Part shown: piece after piece, positions 1 to 9,895 of the stretch
Numbering within the stretch: position 1 is the stretch's first letter
Layout of the letters: every line of letters begins with the position of its first letter
Source: Escherichia coli
GTDB lineage: Bacteria; Pseudomonadota; Gammaproteobacteria; Enterobacterales; Enterobacteriaceae
Reading direction: 5' to 3' (one strand)
Assembly: GCF_003334355.1 (NCBI RefSeq)
Contig: NZ_QOWP01000057.1
Length of the DNA stretch: 9,895 nt
Program-made: the position numbers and the translations under genes
The notes under the pieces: model-generated
What the model saw: only the letters and a program-made list of their open reading frames with translations
What the model was told of the DNA's origin: nothing
The model's database searches: none

Positions 1-116
1 TGAATCTGAGGCAGCACCTGGCACGGCTGGGACGGAAGTCGCTGTCGTTCTCAAAATCGGTGGAGCTGCATGACAAAGTCATCGGGCATTATCTGAACAT
101 AAAACACTATCAATAA
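1..116 (+). CDS. insB: IS1 transposase InsB, C-terminal portion (5' end outside window)
   Basis: Frame starting at 3 translates to [37 protein letters not shown] with stop TAA at 114-116, which is the recalled InsB C-terminus. No start codon in window. Confidence 0.8.
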
Positions 117-131
117 GTTGGAGTCATTACC
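1..131 (+). mobile_element. IS1 insertion sequence, right-end fragment (element continues upstream of window start)
   Basis: Positions 1-131 match, from memory of the IS1 sequence, the InsB C-terminal coding region followed by the terminal inverted repeat (...CACTATCAATAAGTTGGAGTCATTACC ending at 131). Flanking DNA starts at 132. Confidence 0.85.
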
Positions 132-698
132 CAACTAATCTTATCTATATATCATGTGATATGTTCTGTAACAAGTAAAATCAACATAAAAAATTCAGCA
201 AAATTTAATATTCGCTCAACTAGCCGTCTCACATATGACATTATTAGTCAACTCCATTTGCCACAAAATGGCTATTTCATGGAACGCAGTAATTTCTTAG
301 TGGCTATTATCATGCTAATTCTTAGGTCCCTAGCGATTATTCCTGGCTGGTTCGTCAGTTTAGACCATGAGATTGTTACATTCCTTTTTATCATGGAGAT
401 ATGGGGGAAAGCAGGAAACGATTTTTTCATCTGCATCCGTTGGTAAATATGGCTTTGGTCACTACGACTTAAACCTTCCTCAATCACAGCTGTTCGCCGG
501 GCGATACGGCAAACAAACTAAGTGAGGCATCACCCTGAAAACACCAACATCAACAAGCCTCTCCAGATCGGCTTCAGGAGTGACCAGTTACAAGCCACAA
601 ACCAGGAAACATATTTCATGATGAGAATTATGCTAAGCCTGATGGCGGGTAAACACTTATTTTCACCAAGCTCACTGAGTTAGCTTACAAAGCTTCCC

Positions 699-717
699 TT
701 ATTTAGACTCTAAATAA
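699..717. repeat. Perfect 9-bp inverted repeat TTATTTAGA-C-TCTAAATAA, followed by a second IR AGATATT-N6-AATATCT at ~733-752
   Basis: Read directly from sequence. Lies in the AT-rich nanC-upstream regulatory region; candidate protein-binding palindrome. Confidence 0.4.
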
Positions 718-878
718 ATTATTTATAAAACAGATATTTAAAAGAATATCTTTAGTTTTTGAAGACCACCGCAAGTGTTCGTCTGGCTTCACATGGCATC
801 TTCCTCTTAGAAAAAGATCGACATATTTTGTGACACGAATTGCAAATCTGGTTTTGTTGTATGGATTGCGTGATTTTT

Positions 879-906
879 GATCTGGTATAACAGGTATAAA
901 GGTGCA
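879..906. promoter_or_regulatory. NanR-type operator: GGTATA-ACA-GGTATA-AA-GGTGCA repeats immediately preceded by a GATC Dam site
   Basis: GATC at 879-882; GGTATA at 884-889 and 893-898; degenerate third repeat GGTGCA at 901-906. Tandem GGTATA hexamers are the recognised NanR binding motif, and such a site is known in the fimB-nanC intergenic region. Confidence 0.6.
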
Positions 907-1157
907 CCGCGATAGACAATGAGACAGGGCATCTTGCAATCTATGGCAAACATCACTTCAGTTCTTTCTCATCGGGTGATGAAAACGCACTTCAGTCTGA
1001 AAGGAATATGAAAATGAGATCAACAAACACTCTATTTTATGACTCTGGGTAAAATGGATTGAGTAAGTGATATAGCTTACGAACATTCAAATCAATTAAA
1101 CATCAGAAGAGATTTTATACTCAGGTATTTAATCTGGCTCTCTGTTTATTTAAATAA

Positions 1158-1178
1158 TGTGAAAAGAGAATTTTCACA
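1158..1178. repeat. Perfect 8-bp inverted repeat TGTGAAAA-N5-TTTTCACA about 145 bp upstream of the nanC start
   Basis: Read directly from sequence; candidate operator in the nanC promoter region. Spacing does not fit a canonical CRP site. Confidence 0.4.
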
Positions 1179-1321
1179 GGAGACCTTATACAAAAAATAT
1201 AAAATAAGCTACCCATTGCCAAAGACACTATAAGCCTGGCAAAAAATATTACACAACATAAATGCTAATTGTTTATGCGGGCTTTGTATTGCTTTCTGTA
1301 TCCTACAAATGAGTGAAATTT

Positions 1322-2038
1322 ATGAAAAAGGCTAAAATACTTTCTGGCGTATTATTACTGTGCTTTTCGTCACCATTAATTTCTCAGGCTGCGACACTGG
1401 ACGTACGTGGTGGATATCGTAGCGGAAGCCATGCCTATGAGACTCGACTCAAAGTCAGTGAGGGATGGCAAAATGGATGGTGGGCAAGCATGGAAAGTAA
1501 TACCTGGAATACCATTCATGATAATAAAAAGGAAAATGCCGCACTCAATGATGTTCAGGTTGAAGTTAATTACGCGATTAAACTTGATGATCAATGGACG
1601 GTGCGCCCGGGAATGTTAACGCATTTTAGCAGCAACGGCACCCGCTACGGACCCTACGTAAAACTGTCCTGGGACGCGACAAAAGATCTTAATTTTGGCA
1701 TTCGCTATCGTTACGACTGGAAAGCTTACCGACAACAAGACTTATCCGGTGATATGTCTCGTGATAACGTTCATCGTTGGGATGGATATGTCACTTACCA
1801 TATTAATAGTGATTTCACCTTCGCATGGCAAACGACGCTATACAGCAAACAGAACGATTATCGCTATGCAAACCATAAGAAATGGGCGACGGAAAATGCA
1901 TTTGTTCTACAATACCATATGACGCCCGATATTACGCCATACATAGAATATGACTACCTTGACCGTCAGGGTGTTTACAACGGCAGAGATAATTTATCGG
2001 AAAACAGTTATCGCATTGGTGTGTCATTTAAACTGTAG
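1322..2038 (+). CDS. nanC: N-acetylneuraminic acid outer-membrane channel NanC (KdgM-family porin), 238 aa
   Basis: ORF-track frame 1313-2038. Chosen start is the ATG at 1322 (MKKAKILSGVLLLCFSSPLISQA..., signal peptide ending AQA-A); the track start at 1313 is an upstream GTG. Sequence recognised as E. coli NanC (YjhA). Stop TAG 2036-2038. Confidence 0.93.
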   Translation: MKKAKILSGVLLLCFSSPLISQAATLDVRGGYRSGSHAYETRLKVSEGWQNGWWASMESNTWNTIHDNKKENAALNDVQVEVNYAIKLDDQWTVRPGMLTHFSSNGTRYGPYVKLSWDATKDLNFGIRYRYDWKAYRQQDLSGDMSRDNVHRWDGYVTYHINSDFTFAWQTTLYSKQNDYRYANHKKWATENAFVLQYHMTPDITPYIEYDYLDRQGVYNGRDNLSENSYRIGVSFKL

Positions 2039-2057
2039 TAGACAGGAGACAGTCACA

Positions 2058-3164
2058 ATGAATAAAACAATAACGGCGCTTGCTATCATAATGGCTTCAT
2101 TTGCCGCAAACGCGTCTGTATTACCGGAAACTCCTGTGCCATTTAAAAGTGGTACCGGAGCAATTGATAACGACACTGTCTACATTGGTTTAGGTAGCGC
2201 AGGTACAGCATGGTACAAGCTGGATACACAGGCCAAAGATAAAAAATGGACAGCGTTAGCTGCATTCCCTGGTGGACCGAGAGATCAAGCAACCTCTGCA
2301 TTTATTGATGGTAATCTGTATGTGTTTGGCGGCATTGGCAAAAACAGCGAGGGCTTGACTCAGGTATTTAATGACGTACACAAATACAACCCCAAAACCA
2401 ATAGCTGGGTTAAATTGATGTCGCACGCGCCGATGGGCATGGCGGGCCATGTGACTTTTGTACACAACGGCAAGGCTTATGTTACTGGCGGTGTTAACCA
2501 GAATATCTTCAATGGCTATTTTGAAGATCTCAACGAAGCTGGAAAAGATTCAACCACTATAGATAAAATCAACGCCCACTATTTTGACAAAAAAGCAGAA
2601 GATTATTTCTTCAATAAGTTTCTGTTGTCTTTTGATCCCTCTACACAGCAATGGAGTTACGCTGGCGAATCTCCCTGGTACGGAACGGCTGGTGCGGCGG
2701 TTGTGAATAAAGGTGATAAAACCTGGCTTATTAATGGCGAAGCCAAACCAGGATTGCGAACGGATGCCGTATTTGAACTTGATTTCACCGGTAATAATTT
2801 AAAATGGAATAAGCTTGCTCCCGTCGCATCACCAGATGGCGTCGCTGGCGGTTTTGCAGGCATGAGCAATGACTCACTTATATTTGCCGGAGGGGCCGGA
2901 TTCAAAGGTTCACGAGAAAATTACCAGAACGGTAAGAACTATGCGCATGAAGGCCTGAAAAAATCATATAGCGCTGATATTCATCTTTGGCATAACGGGA
3001 AATGGGATAAATCGGGCGAATTATCGCAAGGTCGGGCCTACGGAGTATCATTGCCCTGGAATAATAGTTTATTAATTATTGGCGGTGAAACTGCAGGCGG
3101 CAAAGCGGTGACGGATTCAGTTTTAATTTCTGTGAAGGATAATAAAGTCACAGTACAAAACTAA
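2058..3164 (+). CDS. nanM: N-acetylneuraminate mutarotase NanM (Kelch-repeat beta-propeller, periplasmic), 368 aa
   Basis: ORF-track frame 1950-3164. Chosen start is the ATG at 2058 preceded by AGGAGA (2044-2049); the track start at 1950 overlaps the nanC 3' end. MNKTITALAIIMASFAANASV... signal peptide; recognised as NanM (YjhT). Confidence 0.93.
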   Translation: MNKTITALAIIMASFAANASVLPETPVPFKSGTGAIDNDTVYIGLGSAGTAWYKLDTQAKDKKWTALAAFPGGPRDQATSAFIDGNLYVFGGIGKNSEGLTQVFNDVHKYNPKTNSWVKLMSHAPMGMAGHVTFVHNGKAYVTGGVNQNIFNGYFEDLNEAGKDSTTIDKINAHYFDKKAEDYFFNKFLLSFDPSTQQWSYAGESPWYGTAGAAVVNKGDKTWLINGEAKPGLRTDAVFELDFTGNNLKWNKLAPVASPDGVAGGFAGMSNDSLIFAGGAGFKGSRENYQNGKNYAHEGLKKSYSADIHLWHNGKWDKSGELSQGRAYGVSLPWNNSLLIIGGETAGGKAVTDSVLISVKDNKVTVQN

Positions 3165-3170
3165 CGCTTC

Positions 3171-3192
3171 AGGGCCCCGGTAAAGGGGCCTT
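3171..3192 (+). other. GC-rich stem-loop (AGGGCCCC / GGGGCCTT, loop GGTAAA) in the nanM-nanS intergenic region
   Basis: 8-bp stem read directly from sequence, starting 7 nt after the nanM stop. No clean downstream T-tract, so it looks more like an intra-operon attenuator or RNA-stability hairpin than a strong terminator. Confidence 0.4.
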
Positions 3193-3228
3193 GCTATCAA
3201 TTTGTCATTTGTATTACGCGAAAATTAT

Positions 3229-4209
3229 ATGAACGCAATAATATCGCCCGATTATTACTATGTTCTTACCGTTGCTGGTCAGTCTAATGCCATGGCGTAT
3301 GGCGAAGGACTACCATTACCGGACAAGGAAGATGCGCCTCATCCCAGAATTAAACAATTAGCGAGATTTGCGCATACACATCCCGGAGGCCCGTCATGTC
3401 ACTTTAACGACATTATTCCACTGACTCACTGCCCACACGATGTTCAGGATATGCAGGGTTATCACCATCCTCTGGCAACGAATCATCAAACACAGTACGG
3501 CACCGTTGGCCAGGCACTACATATAGCACGGAAATTACTGCCCTTTATTCCTGATAATGCAGGGGTTCTCATCGTTCCGTGTTGCCGTGGCGGATCGGCT
3601 TTTACCGCGGGCAGCGAAGGGACATATTCAGAACGGCACGGAGCCAGCCATGATGCTTGTCGTTGGGGAACGGATACTCCGCTATACCAGGATTTAGTCA
3701 GCAGAACGCGAGCCGCACTGGCAAAAAATCCGCAGAACAAATTCCTCGGCGTATGCTGGATGCAAGGCGAATTTGACTTAATGACCAGTGACTACGCGTC
3801 ACACCCTCAACACTTTAATCATATGGTTGACGCCTTTCGTAGGGATCTAAAACAATACCATTCTCAGCTTAATAAAATTACTGACGCGCCGTGGTTTTGC
3901 GGCGATACCACCTGGTACTGGAAAGAAAATTTCCCTCATGCGTATGAAGCTATTTATGGCAATTATCAAAATAATGTTCTAGCCAATATTATTTTCGTCG
4001 ACTTCCAGCAACAAGGTGCAAGAGGACTGACGAACGCGCCTGATGAAGATCCGGACGATTTAAGCACGGGATATTACGGTTCAGCGTACCGGTCACCGGA
4101 GAACTGGACGACGGCACTGCGAAGCAGTCATTTCAGCGCGGCAGCCCGTCGAGGGATTATTTCTGACAGGTTTGTAGAAGCAATTTTGCAGTTTTGGCGC
4201 GAAAGGTGA
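3229..4209 (+). CDS. nanS: 9-O-acetyl-N-acetylneuraminate esterase NanS, 326 aa
   Basis: ORF-track frame 3202-4209. Chosen start is the ATG at 3229 (MNAIISPDYYYVLTVAGQSNAMAYGEG...); the track start at 3202 is a TTG. Recognised as NanS (YjhS). Stop TGA 4207-4209. Confidence 0.9.
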   Translation: MNAIISPDYYYVLTVAGQSNAMAYGEGLPLPDKEDAPHPRIKQLARFAHTHPGGPSCHFNDIIPLTHCPHDVQDMQGYHHPLATNHQTQYGTVGQALHIARKLLPFIPDNAGVLIVPCCRGGSAFTAGSEGTYSERHGASHDACRWGTDTPLYQDLVSRTRAALAKNPQNKFLGVCWMQGEFDLMTSDYASHPQHFNHMVDAFRRDLKQYHSQLNKITDAPWFCGDTTWYWKENFPHAYEAIYGNYQNNVLANIIFVDFQQQGARGLTNAPDEDPDDLSTGYYGSAYRSPENWTTALRSSHFSAAARRGIISDRFVEAILQFWRER

Positions 4210-4219
4210 GCGTTCATTA

Positions 4220-4488
4220 ATTTGATTTATTCGCATCCATCAGCGCTTTTAACTCCTCCGGCGTAAACGGTGGTTTGCGTCGGTGCAACATCGCATGGCA
4301 ATTAGGGCACACAGGAAGTAAAAAAACATATGAGATCAAGGTAATATATCTTCGCTTGCAGGCTTGAACCGCAGAAAATTTGCGAGCATGATCGCAATTA
4401 TTTCACTGCCAGGGATATCAATGGCTTCCAGTAAATCGCTGACGAGCCTTTTTTTGCTCTCCAGCAAATCCGTAAGCAGCGTGACCCA
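4220..4488 (-). pseudogene. HNH endonuclease remnant (C-terminal CxxCH zinc-finger region), frameshifted, no start codon
   Basis: - strand frame with codons at 4402..4220 ends ...LISYVFLLPVCPNCHAMLHRRKPPFTPEELKALMDANKSN* (stop 4217-4219). An adjacent - strand frame (4488..4339) gives the protein-like VTLLTDLLESKKRLVSDLLEAIDIPGSEIIAIMLANFLRFKPASEDILP. The two segments are in different frames and both are bounded by stops upstream. Confidence 0.4.
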
Positions 4489-4857
4489 TTATTTCGCAAA
4501 CATGTATTACGCGCTTATAACTACCAGTGCGCAATATGTAGCTTTAATATTTGTTACGGCAACTCCACCGTCTCACTGGAAGCGACACATATAAAATGGA
4601 AACAACATGGTGGCCCTTGTGAAATTCCCAATGGCCTGGCGCTTTGCGCGATACATCATAAAGCCTTTGATAAAGGAACGATTGGCCTGGATGAAAATAT
4701 GCGGGTACTGGTATTGGATGCGGTAAACGGCGGAGAGATCATTGAGAGGTCATTCTGGGATTTTGACGGAAAAATTATTGCGTTGCCACAGGTGCGTAAA
4801 AATTACCCTTTTGAGGGGGTTGTAGAGTGGCATCGGAAAGAGTTTTTTAGGGGGTGA
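4435..4857 (+). pseudogene. HNH_2-type endonuclease remnant (N-terminally truncated; in-frame TAA at 4432-4434)
   Basis: + frame 4435-4857 translates to ...QQIRKQRDPLFRKHVLRAYNYQCAICSFNICYGNSTVSLEATHIKWKQHGGPCEIPNGLALCAIHHKAFDKGTIGLDENMRVLV...EFFRG*. This matches the recalled HNH_2 signature (FR..vL.aY..CAiC ... LEAaHI ... NGLaLC..HH.aFD.G). No plausible start codon or RBS; the upstream frame is closed by stops. Confidence 0.5.
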
Positions 4858-4860
4858 GGT

Positions 4861-5169
4861 AACCATTATATATCTTTCACCTAGAATTTTAAATGTAATA
4901 GATAAAGTATTTTCTGACACCGAAAGTATTATTTATGAGTACATAGCCATAAATCAATTTTAAAATCTCAATATAAAACACGTTTACAAATATTCTAGTC
5001 AGAGTAAATATATATTCATTATAAGAGAATCCAATTATTAACCAATCGACATTACAAATTAAAAAATAATTAGCATGTTGAACTGTACATTAATTTATAT
5101 ACATAGTAAATTTACATCTATTCATGATATAATTATCGTGATATCAATTCATTAATCAGGAAAATCATA
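4861..5169. other. Strongly AT-rich intergenic block (by eye well under 30% GC)
   Basis: Dense A/T runs and TA-rich words read directly from sequence, contrasting with the nanCMS genes. Typical of horizontally acquired DNA and promoter islands. Confidence 0.7.
5125..5133 (+). promoter_or_regulatory. Candidate extended -10 promoter element TGATATAAT upstream of the 5170 ORF
   Basis: TG-n-TATAAT at 5125-5133, about 37 nt upstream of ATG 5170. No good -35 at 17 bp spacing; the AT-rich context makes chance matches likely. Confidence 0.3.
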
Positions 5170-5472
5170 ATGGAATTATTAAATACTTATGATGATAAAG
5201 AAACAGCTGAAATATTTTTTGAAAGAATAGAAGGAGAGAAAAGATTAGCAAGTGAACGAGATGCTACGGAAACAGTCTATAACCTCTTCGGGCAACCAAC
5301 CTGGAAAAATTTATATCTTCTTGATATGTTTAACCTAAAAGAATTACAAGGGATTATAGAGTGTAGAAAAAATGGACAGTCTTTCGACCAGGAACGACAC
5401 CGGGAAATAATAAAAATGCTTGAATATGCAGCAAAATCGTTTGACTTAATTATTCCTGCACATTGGCGATAA
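5170..5472 (+). CDS. Hypothetical small protein (100 aa), function unknown
   Basis: ORF-track 5170-5472. AGGAAAA 5 nt upstream of the ATG; followed by a strong hairpin terminator. Sequence (MELLNTYDDKETAEIFFERIEGEKRLASERDATETVYNLFGQPTWKNLYLLD...) not recognised as any family I know. Confidence 0.5.
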   Translation: MELLNTYDDKETAEIFFERIEGEKRLASERDATETVYNLFGQPTWKNLYLLDMFNLKELQGIIECRKNGQSFDQERHREIIKMLEYAAKSFDLIIPAHWR

Positions 5473-5474
5473 TA

Positions 5475-5507
5475 TCTGCTCCATATCTCACAGAGATATG
5501 GAGCAGA
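5475..5507. terminator. Bidirectional intrinsic terminator between convergent genes
   Basis: 15-bp perfect stem (5475-5489 pairs with 5493-5507; TCTGCTCCATATCTC / GAGATATGGAGCAGA) with 3-nt loop ACA. Flanked by A/T-rich tracts on both sides, between the 5170-5472 ORF stop and the 5519 stop of the - strand gene. Confidence 0.7.
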
Positions 5508-5518
5508 ATCATATTTAT

Positions 5519-8500
5519 TTACTCGCTAACCATCTTACTGAATAATTTCTCCAGATACAATGAGCCAGTATCCTCAATAAAAAGCACATTTCTGGCTTCC
5601 AGATTCTCTTTTGAATCAGGTACGTTTACTAAGTCAACATAACAAGTTTCAGAAACAATAAATGCACTTAATGATAAGTTATCATCCGATAATTTATGTT
5701 CAAGATTCTTGATTTCTTTATATAATCCGAACTTTGGATCATCAAGATTAAGATTGCGGATGCCTTTTGGATCAATAAGACTTAACCATTGTTTACCACT
5801 TTTATCATCGACTAACCACAATAAGAAATCCGGATAAAAATTACCCGCAGTAGCAAAGCCCAGGCCTCTATTTTTAGAATCCGCATTTCTTAGCAGATAT
5901 AAACTTTTATCACCAATAATTTTCTGCCCTTTTGTCGAATCAACAAAAGACTGAAGATCATGGACAAAAGTAATCTCACTTGATGCACCCAGTGTTGCCG
6001 GTCGCATTTTTAGCGGTATGTTGGCATTTTTTTCAATCGAAAGAAGTGGATAATAGAGATGTTTATCAAAGGTAATAGCAACCATCCCGGATGCACTCCA
6101 GGATTTTGCTTTACCGATTTCGCCGTCGATGACCAATTGTTGTAATTGTTCCAGCCGACTGGCATATGCCAACCCATCATCAGTTTCTTCGATCTCGAAA
6201 TGGTACATTTTGATCATACCAGGATCATCTTCTTTCACCTGCGTGACTTCATAAAACTGACCTTCATAAGCATTTTTCAATGTGTTGTAAAAGCGATCAG
6301 TATAATCAGTCAGCAGACGAAGCATAATATCTTCCTGCTTAGCAATATCTGCATATTGCTTAATCTCAAGCTCTGAAGCTGGAATCAAAAGGGTATACCA
6401 ACTATTTCCGATCTTTGTCTTACCGGTACAAAAGTCGATCAAACGTTGTTTATCCACACGTAAATTTGACCAGCCGCGTTGTAGTTTATAATTCTGAATG
6501 GCGAGATAAAGCCGATCAAAATCAAACGCACTAATGATTTTATAATCTAACTTCGCTTCATTACGCACGTTAACCGGAGTATTGTCCCCTTTTCTGCTGG
6601 TATCAATCGACTCAAGTTTCGGGTATAGGTCCAGCTTAATATGCGGCTGCTTAATTTTCCCCTGAAAATCAGCAGGAACTTCATACAATTCGGGAAAATA
6701 GACACGTTTAAAGCCGAGTCTTTGATTATCTTTATAACCATCTTTAAGCTTAAGTGTTTTAAGCCTGGTTGCTGGCATATTTGGCCGAGTTTCAAAATTC
6801 AGCTCAAGGATCTCGTCACTTGGCGTAATCCCTTCATCTTCCAGGTATTGTTTAAAGGTTGCCATGTAATCGGCACGTACACCGAATACATTCAGTGTCT
6901 CTAATTTTTCCAGATGCAACCCTTTCGGACGCTCACCGGGTGTACTGCGTTTCAAAGAATAATTGCGACCTTTAAGGCGAACGCCACGACCAAATAACTG
7001 AATGATCTGTGAACCTTCTCCACGGCCCATATTGAGCAATCCCATCGTTGAGACGCGCCAACTGCTCCAGCCTTCAGTAAATTTTCGCGAGCCGATCAAA
7101 ATATGTAGTTGCGAGTCTTTGTCATTTAACGTATGAAAGAGTGACTTCGCAAAATCATCTCTCTGATAATCAAATGTCGTATCCTCTTCACACATTTTGT
7201 AAAGAGACGGTGCATCACCAATATTGATAAGACCAAACGGTTCGGCCTCACCAACCTGTAATGCCAGTTCACCTTTACTGCCTATTAAATTCAGAACTCG
7301 CAGTCTCTGACCTGAGTGAGTGGTGTTAAACAAACGAGAAAGAATATCTGCGTAGATATCTTCCGGGCCGTTCATTAGTGCGGTAAAGCGATTTTCAAAA
7401 ATGTTACGCTCTTTGGTATCAAGAATTCGCGCTTTATTTTCAATGAGATCTTTAATCCACGATTTTGCCTGCGATTCATGATTTAAAAACCATGCTAAAA
7501 AACGCAGTACTGCGTGAATGTCTGAATCTTCACCACTTACGGTGTTACCGACAAAAACCCATAGCGGTTTTTCGATATTAAATTCATTTAATTTTTCTTT
7601 ATTCTTATTGAATAAATATTGTTGCTGATAAAAGCTGAGCAAACACGCGGTAAAATACTCATACCGACGCTCATCTTTTTTATCCTCTTCAGGATTAAGG
7701 TTAAGAATCAGTGATTCTTTACCATAACCATCCTCATAGAAGAATTTATAGGAGTAATCGAACAGAATCGATTTCCCATAGACTTCTCGTGTCGCCTGAA
7801 TACGCGCATCACGTTGTTCTTCGCTGGTTAATGCTATTTGCGCTAACTGTTCTTCGCTCAGTTTACCTAAGGCAGTTGTTTCAAAAAGCAGCTTTGCTTT
7901 TTTCTTCTGAATTTCTGTTTCAACTGCCTCAACATTATTGCCACCGGCCACTGCCTGGCCAAAAGTTGCTGAATATTCAAACGCAAATCCGTCACGCGTT
8001 AATTTGTCACGACGGCGCATCCAGGCACCAGCAGCACTTCCTGTGCCTTTATGCCCTTCATCAATCAGGACCAGATTGTTGCCTTCAAATGCCTCAACGG
8101 CAACAGTTTTGTCACCCATTTCATCGGCAAGTTTATTGATATCAATAACTTCAATCGTGCCTTTAAATGGCGCGGATTTACTCTTATCGAATAACTGGTA
8201 TTGGGTAAATCCTGAGTTTTCCAGTTCATCTAAATGTTGCTTCGATAGGCGTTCATCCGGCGTAAGCAGGATGATTTTATCCGGGTAATGATGGCTATTA
8301 CCGTTCTGGAAATAATGTAAATATTGCAAAATATTGACATGTAATAGCAGTGTCTTACCAGAACCAGTAGCGTTCCAGTATGCCAGTTTATTCAAATCAT
8401 CCAGAACGTATGATTTGAACTGATTAGCCCGGTCTTTTGCTGTTTTATCATTTTCAGCATTGTATGCTGCCAGCTCGTTATTTAGCCCATCGAGTAATTG

Positions 8501-8899
8501 CTGTTTACGGTTGAAGTACCAGTCCAGGTAGATCTCGGTAAACAGAAGCGACAAGTACTGAAAATATTTCATGTTCAGCACTGTGTCTTCTTTACGATTA
8601 CGGTGCTCGGTTATCTGCTGCCAGTGCTGCACGATATTGAGATCGTAACGACGCAGTTCATCGAGATCGATAAGATCGACCTCGAATAAATAGTTACTCA
8701 GCTCATGGAAGAATAAGCTTTGGCCATCTTCATGGATGCCTTCAAAGCGATCCTCGCCTAACCGATTCTTCAAACCTTGCAATGTGCCATCTTTAAAAAA
8801 ATGGAACATAAAGCGGTTTAAAACCAACTGCTTATGAAAGCTCAGCTTGCTGTTAGTCTCTTTTTTAACTGCTTTACCGGTGGTCGGTTTTTTAGCCAT
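5519..8899 (-). CDS. SF2 helicase with C-terminal PD-(D/E)xK nuclease motif; Type III restriction Res-like subunit (1126 aa)
   Basis: Intact ORF. Strong RBS GGAGGAGG 7 nt upstream of the ATG at 8899. Walker A ATGSGKT (aa 177-183; 8351-8371), motif II LIDEGH (aa 278-283; 8051-8062), motif VI QLFGRGVR (aa 634-641; 6977-7000), and C-terminal YPDFLLWLV...LIDPK (aa 1022-1045; 5765-5833) fitting PD-x(n)-(D/E)xK. Helicase-then-nuclease order matches Type III Res. Confidence 0.8.
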   Translation of the reverse strand: MAKKPTTGKAVKKETNSKLSFHKQLVLNRFMFHFFKDGTLQGLKNRLGEDRFEGIHEDGQSLFFHELSNYLFEVDLIDLDELRRYDLNIVQHWQQITEHRNRKEDTVLNMKYFQYLSLLFTEIYLDWYFNRKQQLLDGLNNELAAYNAENDKTAKDRANQFKSYVLDDLNKLAYWNATGSGKTLLLHVNILQYLHYFQNGNSHHYPDKIILLTPDERLSKQHLDELENSGFTQYQLFDKSKSAPFKGTIEVIDINKLADEMGDKTVAVEAFEGNNLVLIDEGHKGTGSAAGAWMRRRDKLTRDGFAFEYSATFGQAVAGGNNVEAVETEIQKKKAKLLFETTALGKLSEEQLAQIALTSEEQRDARIQATREVYGKSILFDYSYKFFYEDGYGKESLILNLNPEEDKKDERRYEYFTACLLSFYQQQYLFNKNKEKLNEFNIEKPLWVFVGNTVSGEDSDIHAVLRFLAWFLNHESQAKSWIKDLIENKARILDTKERNIFENRFTALMNGPEDIYADILSRLFNTTHSGQRLRVLNLIGSKGELALQVGEAEPFGLINIGDAPSLYKMCEEDTTFDYQRDDFAKSLFHTLNDKDSQLHILIGSRKFTEGWSSWRVSTMGLLNMGRGEGSQIIQLFGRGVRLKGRNYSLKRSTPGERPKGLHLEKLETLNVFGVRADYMATFKQYLEDEGITPSDEILELNFETRPNMPATRLKTLKLKDGYKDNQRLGFKRVYFPELYEVPADFQGKIKQPHIKLDLYPKLESIDTSRKGDNTPVNVRNEAKLDYKIISAFDFDRLYLAIQNYKLQRGWSNLRVDKQRLIDFCTGKTKIGNSWYTLLIPASELEIKQYADIAKQEDIMLRLLTDYTDRFYNTLKNAYEGQFYEVTQVKEDDPGMIKMYHFEIEETDDGLAYASRLEQLQQLVIDGEIGKAKSWSASGMVAITFDKHLYYPLLSIEKNANIPLKMRPATLGASSEITFVHDLQSFVDSTKGQKIIGDKSLYLLRNADSKNRGLGFATAGNFYPDFLLWLVDDKSGKQWLSLIDPKGIRNLNLDDPKFGLYKEIKNLEHKLSDDNLSLSAFIVSETCYVDLVNVPDSKENLEARNVLFIEDTGSLYLEKLFSKMVSE

Positions 8900-8901
8900 T
8901 C

Positions 8902-9873
8902 TTAAACCTCCTCCGCAAACATCAGGTTCAAGAATTCAGGTTCGATCTGGCGGATTTTCAGGCTACGAACAATCTCGCCGTCTTCTTCATCAACGGTAAA
9001 GGCGGTAGGTAAGTTATGATCGCCATTGATATAGATAACGTCGAACGTATTTTCTTTTGCATATAAATCGAATCTGTTGGCATATTTATTCAATTCTTCA
9101 TAGCCGATCTTGTCGCAATCGCGCCACAGAATAAGGGTACGCTCGCCAGTTGGTAGCGTTCCTTCAACACGCACATAGCCACGTTCGATATTGGATTCGA
9201 TGGATTTCACATGTAAGCCAATGAGATAGTTGAAAGTTTCAACTAAATCGATGTTCTTACGCTCAGTAGCACCTGCGGAATCCGTTGTAACATCCATTTC
9301 GTAGTTAAATGGTTTTTTGAAATTATCAGTATTGAGTAGTGAGCCTTTGCTTTCTGTTTCAAGCATATAGTTAAGAACATAATCCTCTCGAATTTCTTTA
9401 AGATCGTCGAAAAGATCCTTTGTTGTTTCAGTACGTTTCAGTGCTATATTGTTAAGAGTATCCTCAAAACTCTCAATTTTAATATATTTTATTAATGTCT
9501 GCTCAACTGGATTACAGCTTAGTGCTTTTCCATACTTCCAGTCAGTTGTAAAAATAGCTTTTTTTACTCTAGGCAAGGTAACAGAATAAAAATATTCACC
9601 TTGTTCGACCAAGCTAAATTTTCGAAAACCATTATCATCCCTATTCATATCTACCACTGCATGCCCTGTAGTACCAGAGCCAGCAAAATAGTCTAAGAAA
9701 TGAGCATACTTCGAATTACTAAGCGACTCTAAACATTCCTTAACCGCATAAATACTTTTTGGAAAAGAAAAATTAATCTGAGTCACGTTAAACAAACTAT
9801 TTAATAGTTCCGAACCATTGAACCGCCCCGGGTTTCCTGGAGAGTGTTTTATCTGTGAACTCAGGCTGCCAGA
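8902..9873 (-). CDS. Type III Mod-like N6/N4 DNA methyltransferase, C-terminal portion (AdoMet motif I plus C-terminal domain); reading frame interrupted upstream
   Basis: Open frame 9873..8902 contains FSFPKS...LDYFAGSGTTGHAV (motif I at 9667-9693) followed by RKFSLVEQGEYF, the pattern seen in beta-class and Type III Mod methyltransferases. The stop TAA overlaps the res RBS with only a 2-nt gap to the res ATG. In-frame stop at 9874-9876; a different frame is open 9800-9895. The catalytic DPPY-type motif is not in the window. Confidence 0.65.
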   Translation of the reverse strand, partial: SGSLSSQIKHSPGNPGRFNGSELLNSLFNVTQINFSFPKSIYAVKECLESLSNSKYAHFLDYFAGSGTTGHAVVDMNRDDNGFRKFSLVEQGEYFYSVTLPRVKKAIFTTDWKYGKALSCNPVEQTLIKYIKIESFEDTLNNIALKRTETTKDLFDDLKEIREDYVLNYMLETESKGSLLNTDNFKKPFNYEMDVTTDSAGATERKNIDLVETFNYLIGLHVKSIESNIERGYVRVEGTLPTGERTLILWRDCDKIGYEELNKYANRFDLYAKENTFDVIYINGDHNLPTAFTVDEEDGEIVRSLKIRQIEPEFLNLMFAEEV

Positions 9874-9895
9874 TCATCGTTTCCGATGGAAGCAT

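Follow-up and report, generated by a model that had tools for sequence, protein, structure and literature searches.

Beside nanS in Escherichia coli: an eroded nuclease pair very probably forms the flank, and not the cargo, at one edge of a leuX-anchored defence hotspot

Where, beside nanS, does the conserved chromosome of Escherichia coli end and exchangeable DNA begin? We addressed this question in a stretch of 9,895 nucleotides (contig NZ_QOWP01000057.1; hereafter, the window). A first-pass annotation had placed a sharp junction immediately after the nanS stop codon and counted everything beyond it, including two nuclease-gene remnants, as acquired variable DNA. The features it listed are all present where it put them (Table 1), but the sharp junction does not lie directly after the nanS stop. 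We hold with high confidence that positions 4210-5518 form the edge nearest nanS of E. coli defence hotspot #37, which is anchored at leuX, and that this edge has two layers, an eroded flank and an exchangeable cargo.

Table 1. Features of the window, with the evidence on which each is placed
Feature	Position	Strand	Basis or remark
IS1 3' end beside the nanC upstream region (context)	1..116	+	L001 annotation
nanS (sialate O-acetylesterase), core flank gene of the hotspot	3229..4209	+	annotated in RefSeq at the identical locus L001
29-codon ORF antisense to the nanS 3' end, homologous to K-12 YthB	4128..4217	-	annotated as WP_374758120.1 in L003, L005 and L006
HNH endonuclease gene (216 aa when intact), of which the last 34 codons remain	4217..4321	-	PGAP pseudogene
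Intergenic region between the two divergent nuclease genes	4322..4420		aligns to L003, L004, L005 and L007
Apparently dead SBD-HNH (phosphorothioate-dependent, EcoWI/SprMcrA-type) restriction gene	4421..4857	+	deletion endpoints against an intact homologue
Cargo junction, from species-wide flank to swappable DNA	4861..4862		six-locus alignment, GC drop, genome-frequency drop
AT-rich spacer (22.1% GC), first part of the cargo, upstream of ORF100	4862..5169		GC profile
ORF100, unnamed conserved 100-aa protein family	5170..5472	+	homologues, conservation, predicted structure
Hairpin separating ORF100 from the convergent Res gene	5475..5507		perfectly paired stem of 15 bp with a loop of 3 nt
Res-like subunit (1126 aa) of the Type III-like module	5519..8899	-	PADLOC REase_III PDLC03654, 2316 bits, full length
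Mod methyltransferase gene, 3' 305 codons (1034 aa when intact)	8902..9818	-	cut off by IS
IS3-family element end, interrupting mod	9819..9895		matches stop at 9818

On the conserved side, a survey of 5,426 complete E. coli genomes finds nanS in 5,033 (93%), at 95-100% identity. Some records give it as a partial pseudogene; as its sequence is identical in these and in records annotated as full-length (L001 versus L006), 'partial' reflects an annotation difference and not biology. The ATG of the short antisense ORF at the 3' end of nanS, whose translation was compared with K-12 ythB, overlaps the HNH stop codon (TAATG). At the start of the window, the IS1 3' end accounts for the many multi-copy matches; in L001 the gene order there is gntP - IS1A - nanC, with no fim operon between.

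Composition, alignment and genome counts all place the conserved/variable break some 650 bp past the nanS stop codon. GC content is steady at 44-45% across the remnants (4210-4861) and first drops, to 22%, at position 4862 (nanS 48.5%, spacer 22.1%, ORF100 33.3%, Res 40.0%). In a six-locus alignment the loci are identical through GGTGAGGTA(A/G) and then part into three cargo classes at exactly 4861/4862, which is 4-5 nt past the SBD-HNH stop codon. Some part of the HNH/SBD-HNH pair was found in 4,936 of the 5,426 complete genomes (91%) and the stretch 4862-5518 in 379 (7%); as this collection is skewed to clinical lineages, the change from 91% to 7% across the junction should not be read in terms of population frequencies. 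The break is thus real and far beyond chance, and it lies at 4861/4862 and not at the nanS stop. A GC profile and alignment with other loci, part of the check that had been proposed, reveal the expected compositional break but shift its position; the nuclease remnants, common to most genomes and similar in GC to the nan genes, are conserved flank and not acquired DNA.

That two nuclease-gene remnants follow nanS was correctly noted. The first, when compared with the intact gene of locus L004, has lost ~570-580 bp, including everything from the start codon through codon 182; the Pfam HNH domain of the intact 216-aa protein occupies residues 141-197. The second retains an ATG and seven codons, followed by a 428-bp out-of-frame deletion and then by 141 codons of the HNH domain with no usable start; the earliest ATG of that frame, at 4699, is downstream of the catalytic motif. 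The deletion endpoints carry the microhomology AAAT(C/T)GCT. Since this frameshifting deletion between short imperfect repeats interrupts the gene, no nuclease domain is translatable from it, and the sulfur-binding and HNH domains that NCBIfam NF045808 describes are not joined in one intact frame. On the evidence of their reading frames, both nuclease genes appear to be dead in this strain.

The intact SBD-HNH homologue in L004 (290 aa) scores 438.7 bits with NF045808 (cut-off 180), and its sulfur-binding domain matches ScoMcrA (PDB 5zmo). It resembles the EcoWI/SprMcrA-type enzymes in its domain order, sulfur-binding at the N terminus and HNH at the C terminus, and its size agrees with the 33.4 kDa of EcoWI (PMC7461809), with which it is placed by type and not by identity. 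Enzymes of the EcoWI type restrict phosphorothioate-modified plasmids (PMC7461809). The window copy differs from them in being frameshifted and in lacking the sulfur-binding domain, and is a pseudogene.

Positions 4210-4861 would therefore seem to hold what remains of a species-ancestral pair of divergent stand-alone HNH restriction nucleases, a 216-aa HNH protein and a 290-aa SBD-HNH protein. At least 80% of the pair is kept in only 326 of the 5,426 genomes. The intergenic region aligns in part to K-12 (window 4321-4380, at 86.7%), and the K-12 deletions in the pair differ from those of the window; to judge from these differences, different lineages, K-12 included, have lost different pieces of the pair by independent deletions. 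Identity between lineages is 82-97% for the pair against 97-98% for nanS. Given this greater divergence, the pair could be an old, often re-imported layer of cargo and not true core.

The annotation had also proposed that the nanS-distal side adjoins a leuX-associated variable region, and that a defence module sits here at a known variable hotspot. Both proposals are borne out. Strain A22 (L007) shares the window's flank allele, and in it ~8 kb separate nanS from an integrase, tRNA-Leu and ahr/yjgB, and nanS, the remnants, a Type III system, the integrase, tRNA-Leu and ahr all lie inside ~9 kb. The leuX-side bound (yjgB/ahr, tRNA-Leu(CAA) and integrase) is seen in the flank-sharing relatives L007 and L008; the window itself stops short of that side, and in L001 the 12 kb past the window contain IS66, IS2 and island remnants, with leuX not yet reached. 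In the S1 Table of Hochhauser, Millman & Sorek 2023 (PMC10121019), the entry for hotspot 37 runs from nanS, named as its upstream flank, to yjgB with tRNA_Leu_CAA, and counts 475 genomes with the hotspot and 462 in which it is occupied; the review PMC12707154 also covers this hotspot. The present locus agrees with that entry in having nanS as the core gene on one side, in the tRNA-Leu and integrase anchor of its relatives, and in the interchangeable defence systems that different strains carry, namely McrBC, Type I, Type III, a Mokosh remnant and the Type III-like/SNF2 system. As the nanS-yjgB/leuX interval is published as hotspot #37 in that table, our main point was already known: that the interval is the most heavily occupied E. 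coli defence hotspot is a published fact, here rediscovered. A keyword search of PMC10121019 and PMC12707154 did not find the fine structure of the nanS side, that is, the HNH/SBD-HNH pair, its independent decay, the fixed junction or ORF100.

From 4862 onwards, the cargo of this strain opens with an AT-rich leader and ORF100; a hairpin, the probable terminator, separates these from the convergent operon of Type III-like Res and Mod genes. The Res gene occurs in 191 of the 5,426 genomes (3.5%). Its product has a Pfam ResIII/DEAD match at residues 167-313 (E = 2.6e-7 for ResIII), and a PD...DPK motif can be seen by eye near the C terminus, where no domain match for a PD-(D/E)xK nuclease was obtained; nor did its sequence match any solved structure, Type III enzymes included. 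Mod has a Pfam N6_N4_Mtase domain (PF01555) at residues 491-790 (E = 8e-16), and the intact Mod of L001 scores 1624 bits with the PADLOC MTase_III model. An N6/N4 methyltransferase Mod encoded directly upstream of res is the arrangement expected of Type III systems, and the mod-res order is present in L001, L005 and L009. The module resembles the EcoP15I/EcoP1I type in this order, in the methyltransferase of Mod, in the SF2 ResIII/DEAD motor of Res, and in full-length matches to the MTase_III and REase_III models. It differs in that Mod (1034 aa) and Res (1126 aa) are much larger, in that the window's Res does not match the EcoP15I Res structure, and in its neighbours, as a co-oriented gene for a DrmD-like SNF2 helicase lies directly upstream and the convergent ORF100 follows res.

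In Type III systems, Res needs Mod for DNA recognition. In the window an IS has inserted after mod codon 729, and the top whole-window matches all end at 9818; the mod/IS junction was found in 0 of the 5,426 genomes, the final 77 bases recur in 4,072, and in L008 the same IS end adjoins genes annotated 'IS3 family transposase'. Because an IS3-family element splits mod, the Type III-like module is probably inactive in this strain.

The SNF2 gene lies beside mod in intact relatives; the window ends inside the IS, before reaching it. Class 1 DISARM comprises DrmD, DrmMI, DrmA, DrmB and DrmC, and the locus is similar to it in that an SNF2 gene stands beside a methyltransferase gene and has DrmD as its best match (PADLOC, 661 bits). 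It is unlike DISARM in that DrmA, DrmB (DUF1998) and DrmC are all absent: neither drmA nor drmB is annotated beside SNF2-Mod-Res in L001, and Res has no DrmA match in PADLOC. The NCBIfam equivalog model DISARM_DrmD_b gives 667 bits against a cut-off of 950, over residues 31-671 of 963. A literature search for the trio of SNF2 and Type III-like genes returned only a paper on HmaA.

An AT-rich spacer before the ORF had been pointed out and is confirmed. It is 97% identical in XH990 (L005) despite the different flank allele of that strain, and is partly retained in another island of strain D8. Promoter-like matches in the spacer are weak and, at 6 versus 5.5 in shuffled sequence, no commoner than expected, so we claim no promoter; a search of 3900-5800 yielded no Rfam match at E <= 1. 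The hairpin between ORF100 and Res is probably a bidirectional terminator.

The ORF that precedes the res/mod-like genes had been called an orphan. It is present, but it belongs to a conserved family: 113 homologues with 49-95% identity were found, nearly all of 100 aa, with nine invariant and 21 nearly invariant columns, and synonymous changes outnumber non-synonymous changes among close alleles. AlphaFold2 predicts its structure with a pLDDT of 96.5. Searches of Pfam, NCBIfam, PADLOC and PHROGs gave no match, and the predicted fold gave none beyond its own family. This conservation marks ORF100 as a real gene of an unnamed 100-aa family, and it is the only possibly new item at the locus. A role as a toxin with an upstream HTH/CbeA antitoxin was considered and is not supported, the upstream neighbours being many unrelated clusters with few HTH proteins, and RadC/CbeA being upstream of ORF100 only in Aeromonas-type islands. 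An acidic DNA mimic with anti-restriction activity is likewise not supported (family median net charge -2.5, median pI 5.6).

Could the core nevertheless end exactly at the nanS stop, with everything beyond it acquired and Res the intact counterpart of K-12 yjhR? K-12 does diverge from the window 3 nt past that stop, and it does have, as stated in the annotation, the pseudogene yjhR beside nanS, in the place and orientation of the window's Res and, like it, encoding a helicase-related protein. However, the divergence of K-12 is a deletion of HNH codons 6-216, which kept the HNH start and upstream sequence that now form ythB, and part of the nuclease pair, with its nan-like GC, is present in the great majority of genomes. 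Nor are the two proteins members of one family. In the PADLOC MkoC model of type II Mokosh, the 325 C-terminal positions match yjhR (464 bits; profile positions 812-1135), which also includes a PLD-like region with MkoB/DrmC matches; a preprint treats yjhR as a fused Mokosh protein. REase_III is the only PADLOC match of the window's Res, which fits none of the MkoC, MkoB or DrmC models and so lacks the match to the MkoC helicase-PLD protein by which type II Mokosh is recognised, and BLASTP between yjhR and Res gave nothing meaningful (best E = 0.006 over 47 residues). On these profile matches, K-12 yjhR is a C-terminal fragment of the Mokosh protein MkoC; it has in common with Res a slot beside nanS and helicase relatedness, and is unrelated to Res. 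Because they are unrelated, the window does not hold the K-12 cargo in a more intact form, as had been suggested, by the refutation that the annotation had itself specified. This reading as a whole, with the core ending at the nanS stop, is highly improbable. The outcome for that interpretation is accordingly mixed, in that the leuX border, yjhR in K-12 and a module at a hotspot stand, whereas the 'more intact' cargo and the junction at the nanS stop fall. With the boundary at 4861/4862, the question becomes how cargo is exchanged there. Type III-like/SNF2 cargo is found in the window, L001 and L005, McrBC, sometimes together with a gene for a Type I M subunit, in L003 and L004, classic Type III in L007, and an MkoC remnant in K-12. 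XH990 (L005) combines a flank allele of the McrBC type, which matches the window at 88.8% over 4433-4861, with the window's cargo at 95-97%, and A22 (L007) has the window's flank allele (97.2%, both deletions shared) with classic Type III cargo. Strain D8 has SBD-HNH, ORF100, Res, Mod and SNF2 in another island, at tRNA-Phe, and Res is also found on two plasmids. Anatomy, frequencies, deletion endpoints and mosaic alleles can be read directly from these genomes; from them we infer that one cargo gives way to another through homologous recombination within the conserved flanks, which would shuffle flank alleles and cargoes independently.

The competing mechanism is a site-specific entry of cargo at 4861/4862, with the 3' end of the SBD-HNH gene providing an att-like or cassette-type site. 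McrBC and classic Type III cargoes begin at exactly the same nucleotide in other strains as the Type III-like/SNF2 cargo does here, the junction has moved with its block to the tRNA-Phe island of D8, and a short IS3-end-like sequence can be seen by eye just past the junction in L007. There is also a weak 22-nt direct repeat (4331-4352 and 4855-4876), but at 73% identity it is within chance for AT-rich DNA and is absent from McrBC-type loci, and we rejected it as a cassette boundary. A tRNA-derived att site was rejected too, as the window has no tRNA and no match to the leuX 3' end at <=3 mismatches. No recombinase gene lies beside the junction, and the mosaic of flank SNPs and cargo is the product expected of homologous exchange; we thus consider site-specific entry very unlikely and retain homologous exchange. 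The sharing of one breakpoint, within 1 nt, by three unrelated cargoes is not predicted by random homologous exchange alone. It requires either that each cargo was joined beforehand to the SBD-HNH 3' end or a site-specific step, of which none was found. A further alternative concerns ORF100, which might be a working component, as regulator or establishment factor, of Res-Mod-SNF2 and other methylation-based systems and not merely an edge gene. In many gammaproteobacteria its homologues face, tail to tail, the gene that closes a BREX, Hma or Type III-like operon: of 62 species loci, 53 have a convergent downstream gene, usually within 60 bp (median gap 32 bp), and 38 hold Type III-like/SNF2, BREX-1, BREX-3 or Hma, all of them methyltransferase-based, with upstream neighbours that vary. 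The block of ORF100, Res, Mod and SNF2 recurs in E. coli (leuX and pheU islands), Arsukibacterium, Shewanella, Rheinheimera, Pseudomonas and a Burkholderiales MAG. Against a component stands the dependence of ORF100 identity on host genus (~78% within and ~60% between genera) whatever the cargo, together with the McrBC-type and classic Type III cargoes that occupy the hotspot without ORF100 and a predicted structure that suggests neither a DNA-binding nor an enzyme fold. Moreover, between E. coli and Shewanella or Arsukibacterium, Res is 83% identical and the adjoining ORF100 58-59%; this disparity suggests that the exchange boundary lies between ORF100 and Res. We regard a working component as unlikely. 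ORF100 instead probably belongs to no one system and is a recurrent edge gene of such cargo slots. That it represents an undescribed family of small proteins, marking an edge of a cargo slot that recurs among the integrase islands of gammaproteobacteria, and may help cargo to work or become established, is a proposal that we make tentatively and ourselves find doubtful. ORF100 evolves with the host lineage and not with the cargo.

For pangenome and defence-island software, the practical boundary of this hotspot is the SBD-HNH 3' end rather than nanS; with the boundary set at nanS, most strains are credited with cargo that is in fact a pair of decayed Type IV nuclease genes. In K-12, ythB, the SBD fragment and yjhR are deletion products of the ancestral layout and of a Mokosh system, and not relatives of the Type III-like module. 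If the function of ORF100 is tied to methyltransferase-based systems, it could, for example, delay restriction while a newcomer system methylates the host chromosome. With such a role ORF100 would be a new accessory of methylation-based immunity, and without one it would be a handy marker of the cargo slot.

We found that the junction between conserved and acquired DNA lies at 4861/4862, a break on which base composition, genome frequency and alignment agree. GC content is 48.5% in nanS and 43.9% and 45.0% in the two nuclease-gene remnants that follow it, 22.1% in the spacer at 4862-5169, 33.3% in a short open reading frame (ORF100), 40.0% in Res and 37.2% in Mod. Among 5,426 complete genomes, nanS is matched in 5,033 and some part of the intact nuclease pair of strain CFSAN064036 (locus L004) in 4,936, with at least 80% of the pair kept in only 326; positions 4862-5518 are matched in 379 (184 complete) and Res in 191. 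When six loci are aligned, identity runs to GGTGAGGTA(A/G), 4-5 nt past the stop codon of the second nuclease gene, beyond which they split into three unrelated cargo classes: Type III-like/SNF2 (the window, XH990 and D8), McrBC (L003 and CFSAN064036) and classic Type III (A22). The nuclease pair therefore belongs to a near-universal, eroding flank, and acquired DNA starts 650 bp past nanS. The first-pass annotation had listed both remnants, the AT-rich spacer and the orphan ORF, all of which are present, and had set a sharp junction at the nanS stop; the break is real but lies further on.

Features of the nanS-proximal flank and its cargo (window positions)
Feature	Position	Strand	Remark
nanS	stop at 4209
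HNH endonuclease remnant	4217-4321	-	last 34 residues of a 216-aa protein
SBD-HNH gene	4421-4857		sulfur-binding domain, then HNH nuclease domain
SBD-HNH start	4421-4441		ATG plus seven codons
SBD-HNH nuclease-domain remnant	4435-4857		141 codons, without start
ORF100	5170-5472	+	100 codons
Hairpin	5475-5507		perfect, 15 bp; between ORF100 and convergent Res
Res	5519-8899	-
mod	8902-9818	-	split after codon 729 of 1034
IS3-family element	9819-9895 (end of the element)		splits mod

The window is E. coli chromosome; over positions 1-9818 its identity to at least 30 complete genomes is 99.9-100%. In the annotation of NCCP12480 (L001), an IS1 end is followed by nanC, nanM and nanS, the HNH pseudogene, a 'phosphorothioated DNA-binding restriction endonuclease' pseudogene and a hypothetical protein; on the opposite strand come a DEAD/DEAH helicase-family protein, a DNA methyltransferase and an SNF2-related protein, with island-backbone gene remnants and several IS elements beyond. 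Positions 1-116 are the IS1 end. In the genomes that match, gntP, IS1A and nanC stand side by side (L001, 11419-13321), and the fim operon, which lies between gntP and nanC in K-12, is absent; 1000C-3 (L006) retains a fimbrial-gene fragment beside IS1. This arrangement points to an IS1-associated deletion of the type 1 fimbriae genes in the window lineage.

The HNH gene is intact in CFSAN064036, and the window copy lacks about 570-580 bp, including the start codon. The 290-aa SBD-HNH protein of the same strain is intact and reaches 438.7 bits on NCBIfam NF045808 (cut-off 180); in its N-terminal half it matches the sulfur-binding domain of ScoMcrA (PDB). Because HNH has lost its start, and because SBD-HNH is frameshifted by the loss of 428 bp between imperfect repeats, AAATCGCT and AAATTGCT, with the first in-frame ATG of its nuclease domain (4699) past the catalytic motif, both genes are dead in the window. 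Other deletion classes have SBD-HNH intact and HNH lost (UTI89, HS), SBD-HNH truncated and HNH intact, or a K-12-type fragment alone.

By alignment, K-12 seems to part from the window 3 nt beyond the nanS stop. It keeps the HNH start codon and first five codons (MNKLP), joined to a short antisense ORF that reaches into the 3' end of nanS; this fusion is the annotated small protein YthB (L002, 16598-16696), a deletion product. Where the HNH 3' end survives (window 4128-4217, minus strand, and L004), the ATG of the antisense ORF overlaps the HNH stop (TAATG). K-12 also retains the intergenic region and, of the sulfur-binding domain, ~250 bp (codons ~8-90) that lack the start codon. Given these remains, an ancestral nanS / HNH / SBD-HNH layout also accounts for K-12, whose divergence after nanS reflects deletion, not foreign DNA.

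Res had been proposed as a more intact counterpart of K-12 yjhR, a proposal that hung on the two being related. In PADLOC, yjhR (338 codons) aligns with positions 812-1135 of MkoC, a 1136-position model (464 bits), with weaker matches to MkoA, MkoB and DrmC, and Res matches REase_III alone; BLASTP gave no meaningful alignment between them, and the proposal falls. A preprint independently regards yjhR as a fused Mokosh protein. Since yjhR is assigned to MkoC and Res to REase_III, the contents of the slot differ, K-12 having once held a type II Mokosh system and the window holding a Type III-like module.

Within this module, Res matches REase_III over its full length (2316 bits), carries a ResIII/DEAD motor and has no sequence match to any solved structure; the methyltransferase matches MTase_III (1624 bits), and in PADLOC the SNF2 protein scores highest against DrmD (661 bits). 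An assignment to DISARM was rejected, because the SNF2 protein reaches 667 bits against a curated DrmD cut-off of 950 and the module, as annotated in L001, is without drmA and drmB. None of the whole-window matches listed runs past 9818, the final 77 bases turn up in 4,072 genomes, and the window-end sequence adjoins 'IS3 family transposase' genes in a related locus (L008); mod is therefore split by an IS3-family element. The 9818/9819 junction was found in 0 of 5,426 complete E. coli genomes, which suggests an insertion peculiar to the source strain. Target recognition by Res in Type III enzymes depends on Mod, and because mod is split the module is probably inactive in that strain. Among NCCP12480, XH990 and D8, both ends of Mod are 98-100% identical and residues ~400-930 only 20-60%; Res is meanwhile 97-99% identical (DNA). 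This suggests that target-recognition or catalytic regions of Mod have been swapped, hence different specificities within E. coli.

In XH990 the flank allele is that of the McrBC strains (88.8% identity to the window over 4433-4861) and the cargo is that of the window (95-97% from 4862 on), the pattern switching at the junction in the six-locus alignment; A22 has the flank allele of the window, including both deletions (97.2%), and another cargo. Because such a mosaic is what homologous exchange within conserved flanks yields, the cargo would most likely have been swapped in this way. Site-specific entry of cargo at the junction, which the sharpness of the shared breakpoint favours, seems to us improbable; the window holds no leuX-derived repeat and no tRNA. 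The ~90 bases directly after the junction in A22 (L007, ~9653-9750) seem to resemble an IS3 terminal inverted repeat, and could have been left there by an earlier IS. The block from SBD-HNH to SNF2 also moves as a unit between hotspots, as D8 (NZ_CP010151.1; L009, 8083-18502) carries the SBD-HNH pseudogene, ORF100, Res, Mod and SNF2 in a tRNA-Phe island beside dsbD/dicD, and Res is also found on two plasmids. The module is gone in ~190 genomes, among them several 'strain 167' deposits and 1000C-3, whose ORF100 is interrupted by an IS66-family element at window position 5292. A 5.7-kb contig of an 'uncultured Streptococcus sp.' MAG (L026, USKA01000072.1) holds SBD-HNH, ORF100 and Res at 96-99% identity to E. 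coli, and is almost certainly a mis-binned E. coli contig.

The suggestion that a defence module sits at a recognised variable hotspot held up. In Hochhauser, Millman and Sorek (PLoS Genet 2023, PMC10121019), hotspot 37 is bounded by nanS and yjgB with tRNA_Leu_CAA; of the 475 genomes in which it was detected, 462 (97%) have it occupied. A 2025 EcoSal review (PMC12707154) names leuX as its anchor and gives it the highest occupancy among the 41 E. coli defence islands. A minimal form is seen in A22, where nanS and both remnants are followed by Type III res and mod, a hypothetical gene, a decayed integrase, tRNA-Leu and ahr. Identical or near-identical nanS is annotated unequally in RefSeq (L001 versus L003, L005, L006 and L007), either as a full-length 981-bp gene or as a partial pseudogene accompanied by a 29-aa 'hypothetical protein', which could mislead hotspot calling based on flank genes. 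As the locus is published hotspot #37 and holds known kinds of genes, the finding itself is not new; what may be new is confined to the ORF100 family and its place 3' of methylation-based defence operons.

ORF100 is a genuine gene whose strongly conserved, unnamed family occurs across Gammaproteobacteria. Its 113 homologues (49-95% identity, nearly every one of exactly 100 aa) come from Aeromonas, Vibrio, Shewanella, Pseudoalteromonas, Salmonella, Marinomonas and others, with nine invariant and 21 nearly invariant positions; synonymous to non-synonymous changes between close alleles stand at 9:4 and 12:4, and the AlphaFold2 model is very confident (pLDDT 96.5). There was no match in Pfam, NCBIfam, PADLOC or PHROGs and no fold relative beyond its own family. 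A context scan with one genome per species returned 77 loci, and ORF100 is usually arranged tail-to-tail with the closing gene of a BREX-1, BREX-3, Hma or Type III-like/SNF2 operon, no more than about 60 bp away. The downstream gene is convergent in 53 of the 62 loci in which one was called (median gap 32 bp), and BLAST to references checked against PADLOC typed the operons as Type III-like/SNF2 (12), BREX with PglXI/BrxHI/PglZ (12), Hma (8), BREX with BrxL/PglZ/PglX (6) and unclassified (24), counts that are indicative only, coming from a crude ORF caller and mutually related loci; individually inspected contigs agree. Upstream neighbours vary, with a P4-type integrase directly upstream in several loci. 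Membership of a toxin-antitoxin pair was rejected on this variation, and a DNA mimic on median net charge (-2.5) and pI (5.6). ORF100 identity is ~78% within a genus and ~60% between genera, regardless of cargo, and between E. coli and Shewanella or Arsukibacterium Res is 83% identical and the adjacent ORF100 58-59%. We read ORF100 as the probable edge gene of a recurrent cargo slot, not as a co-evolving subunit, and it may have a generic role with methyltransferase-based systems.
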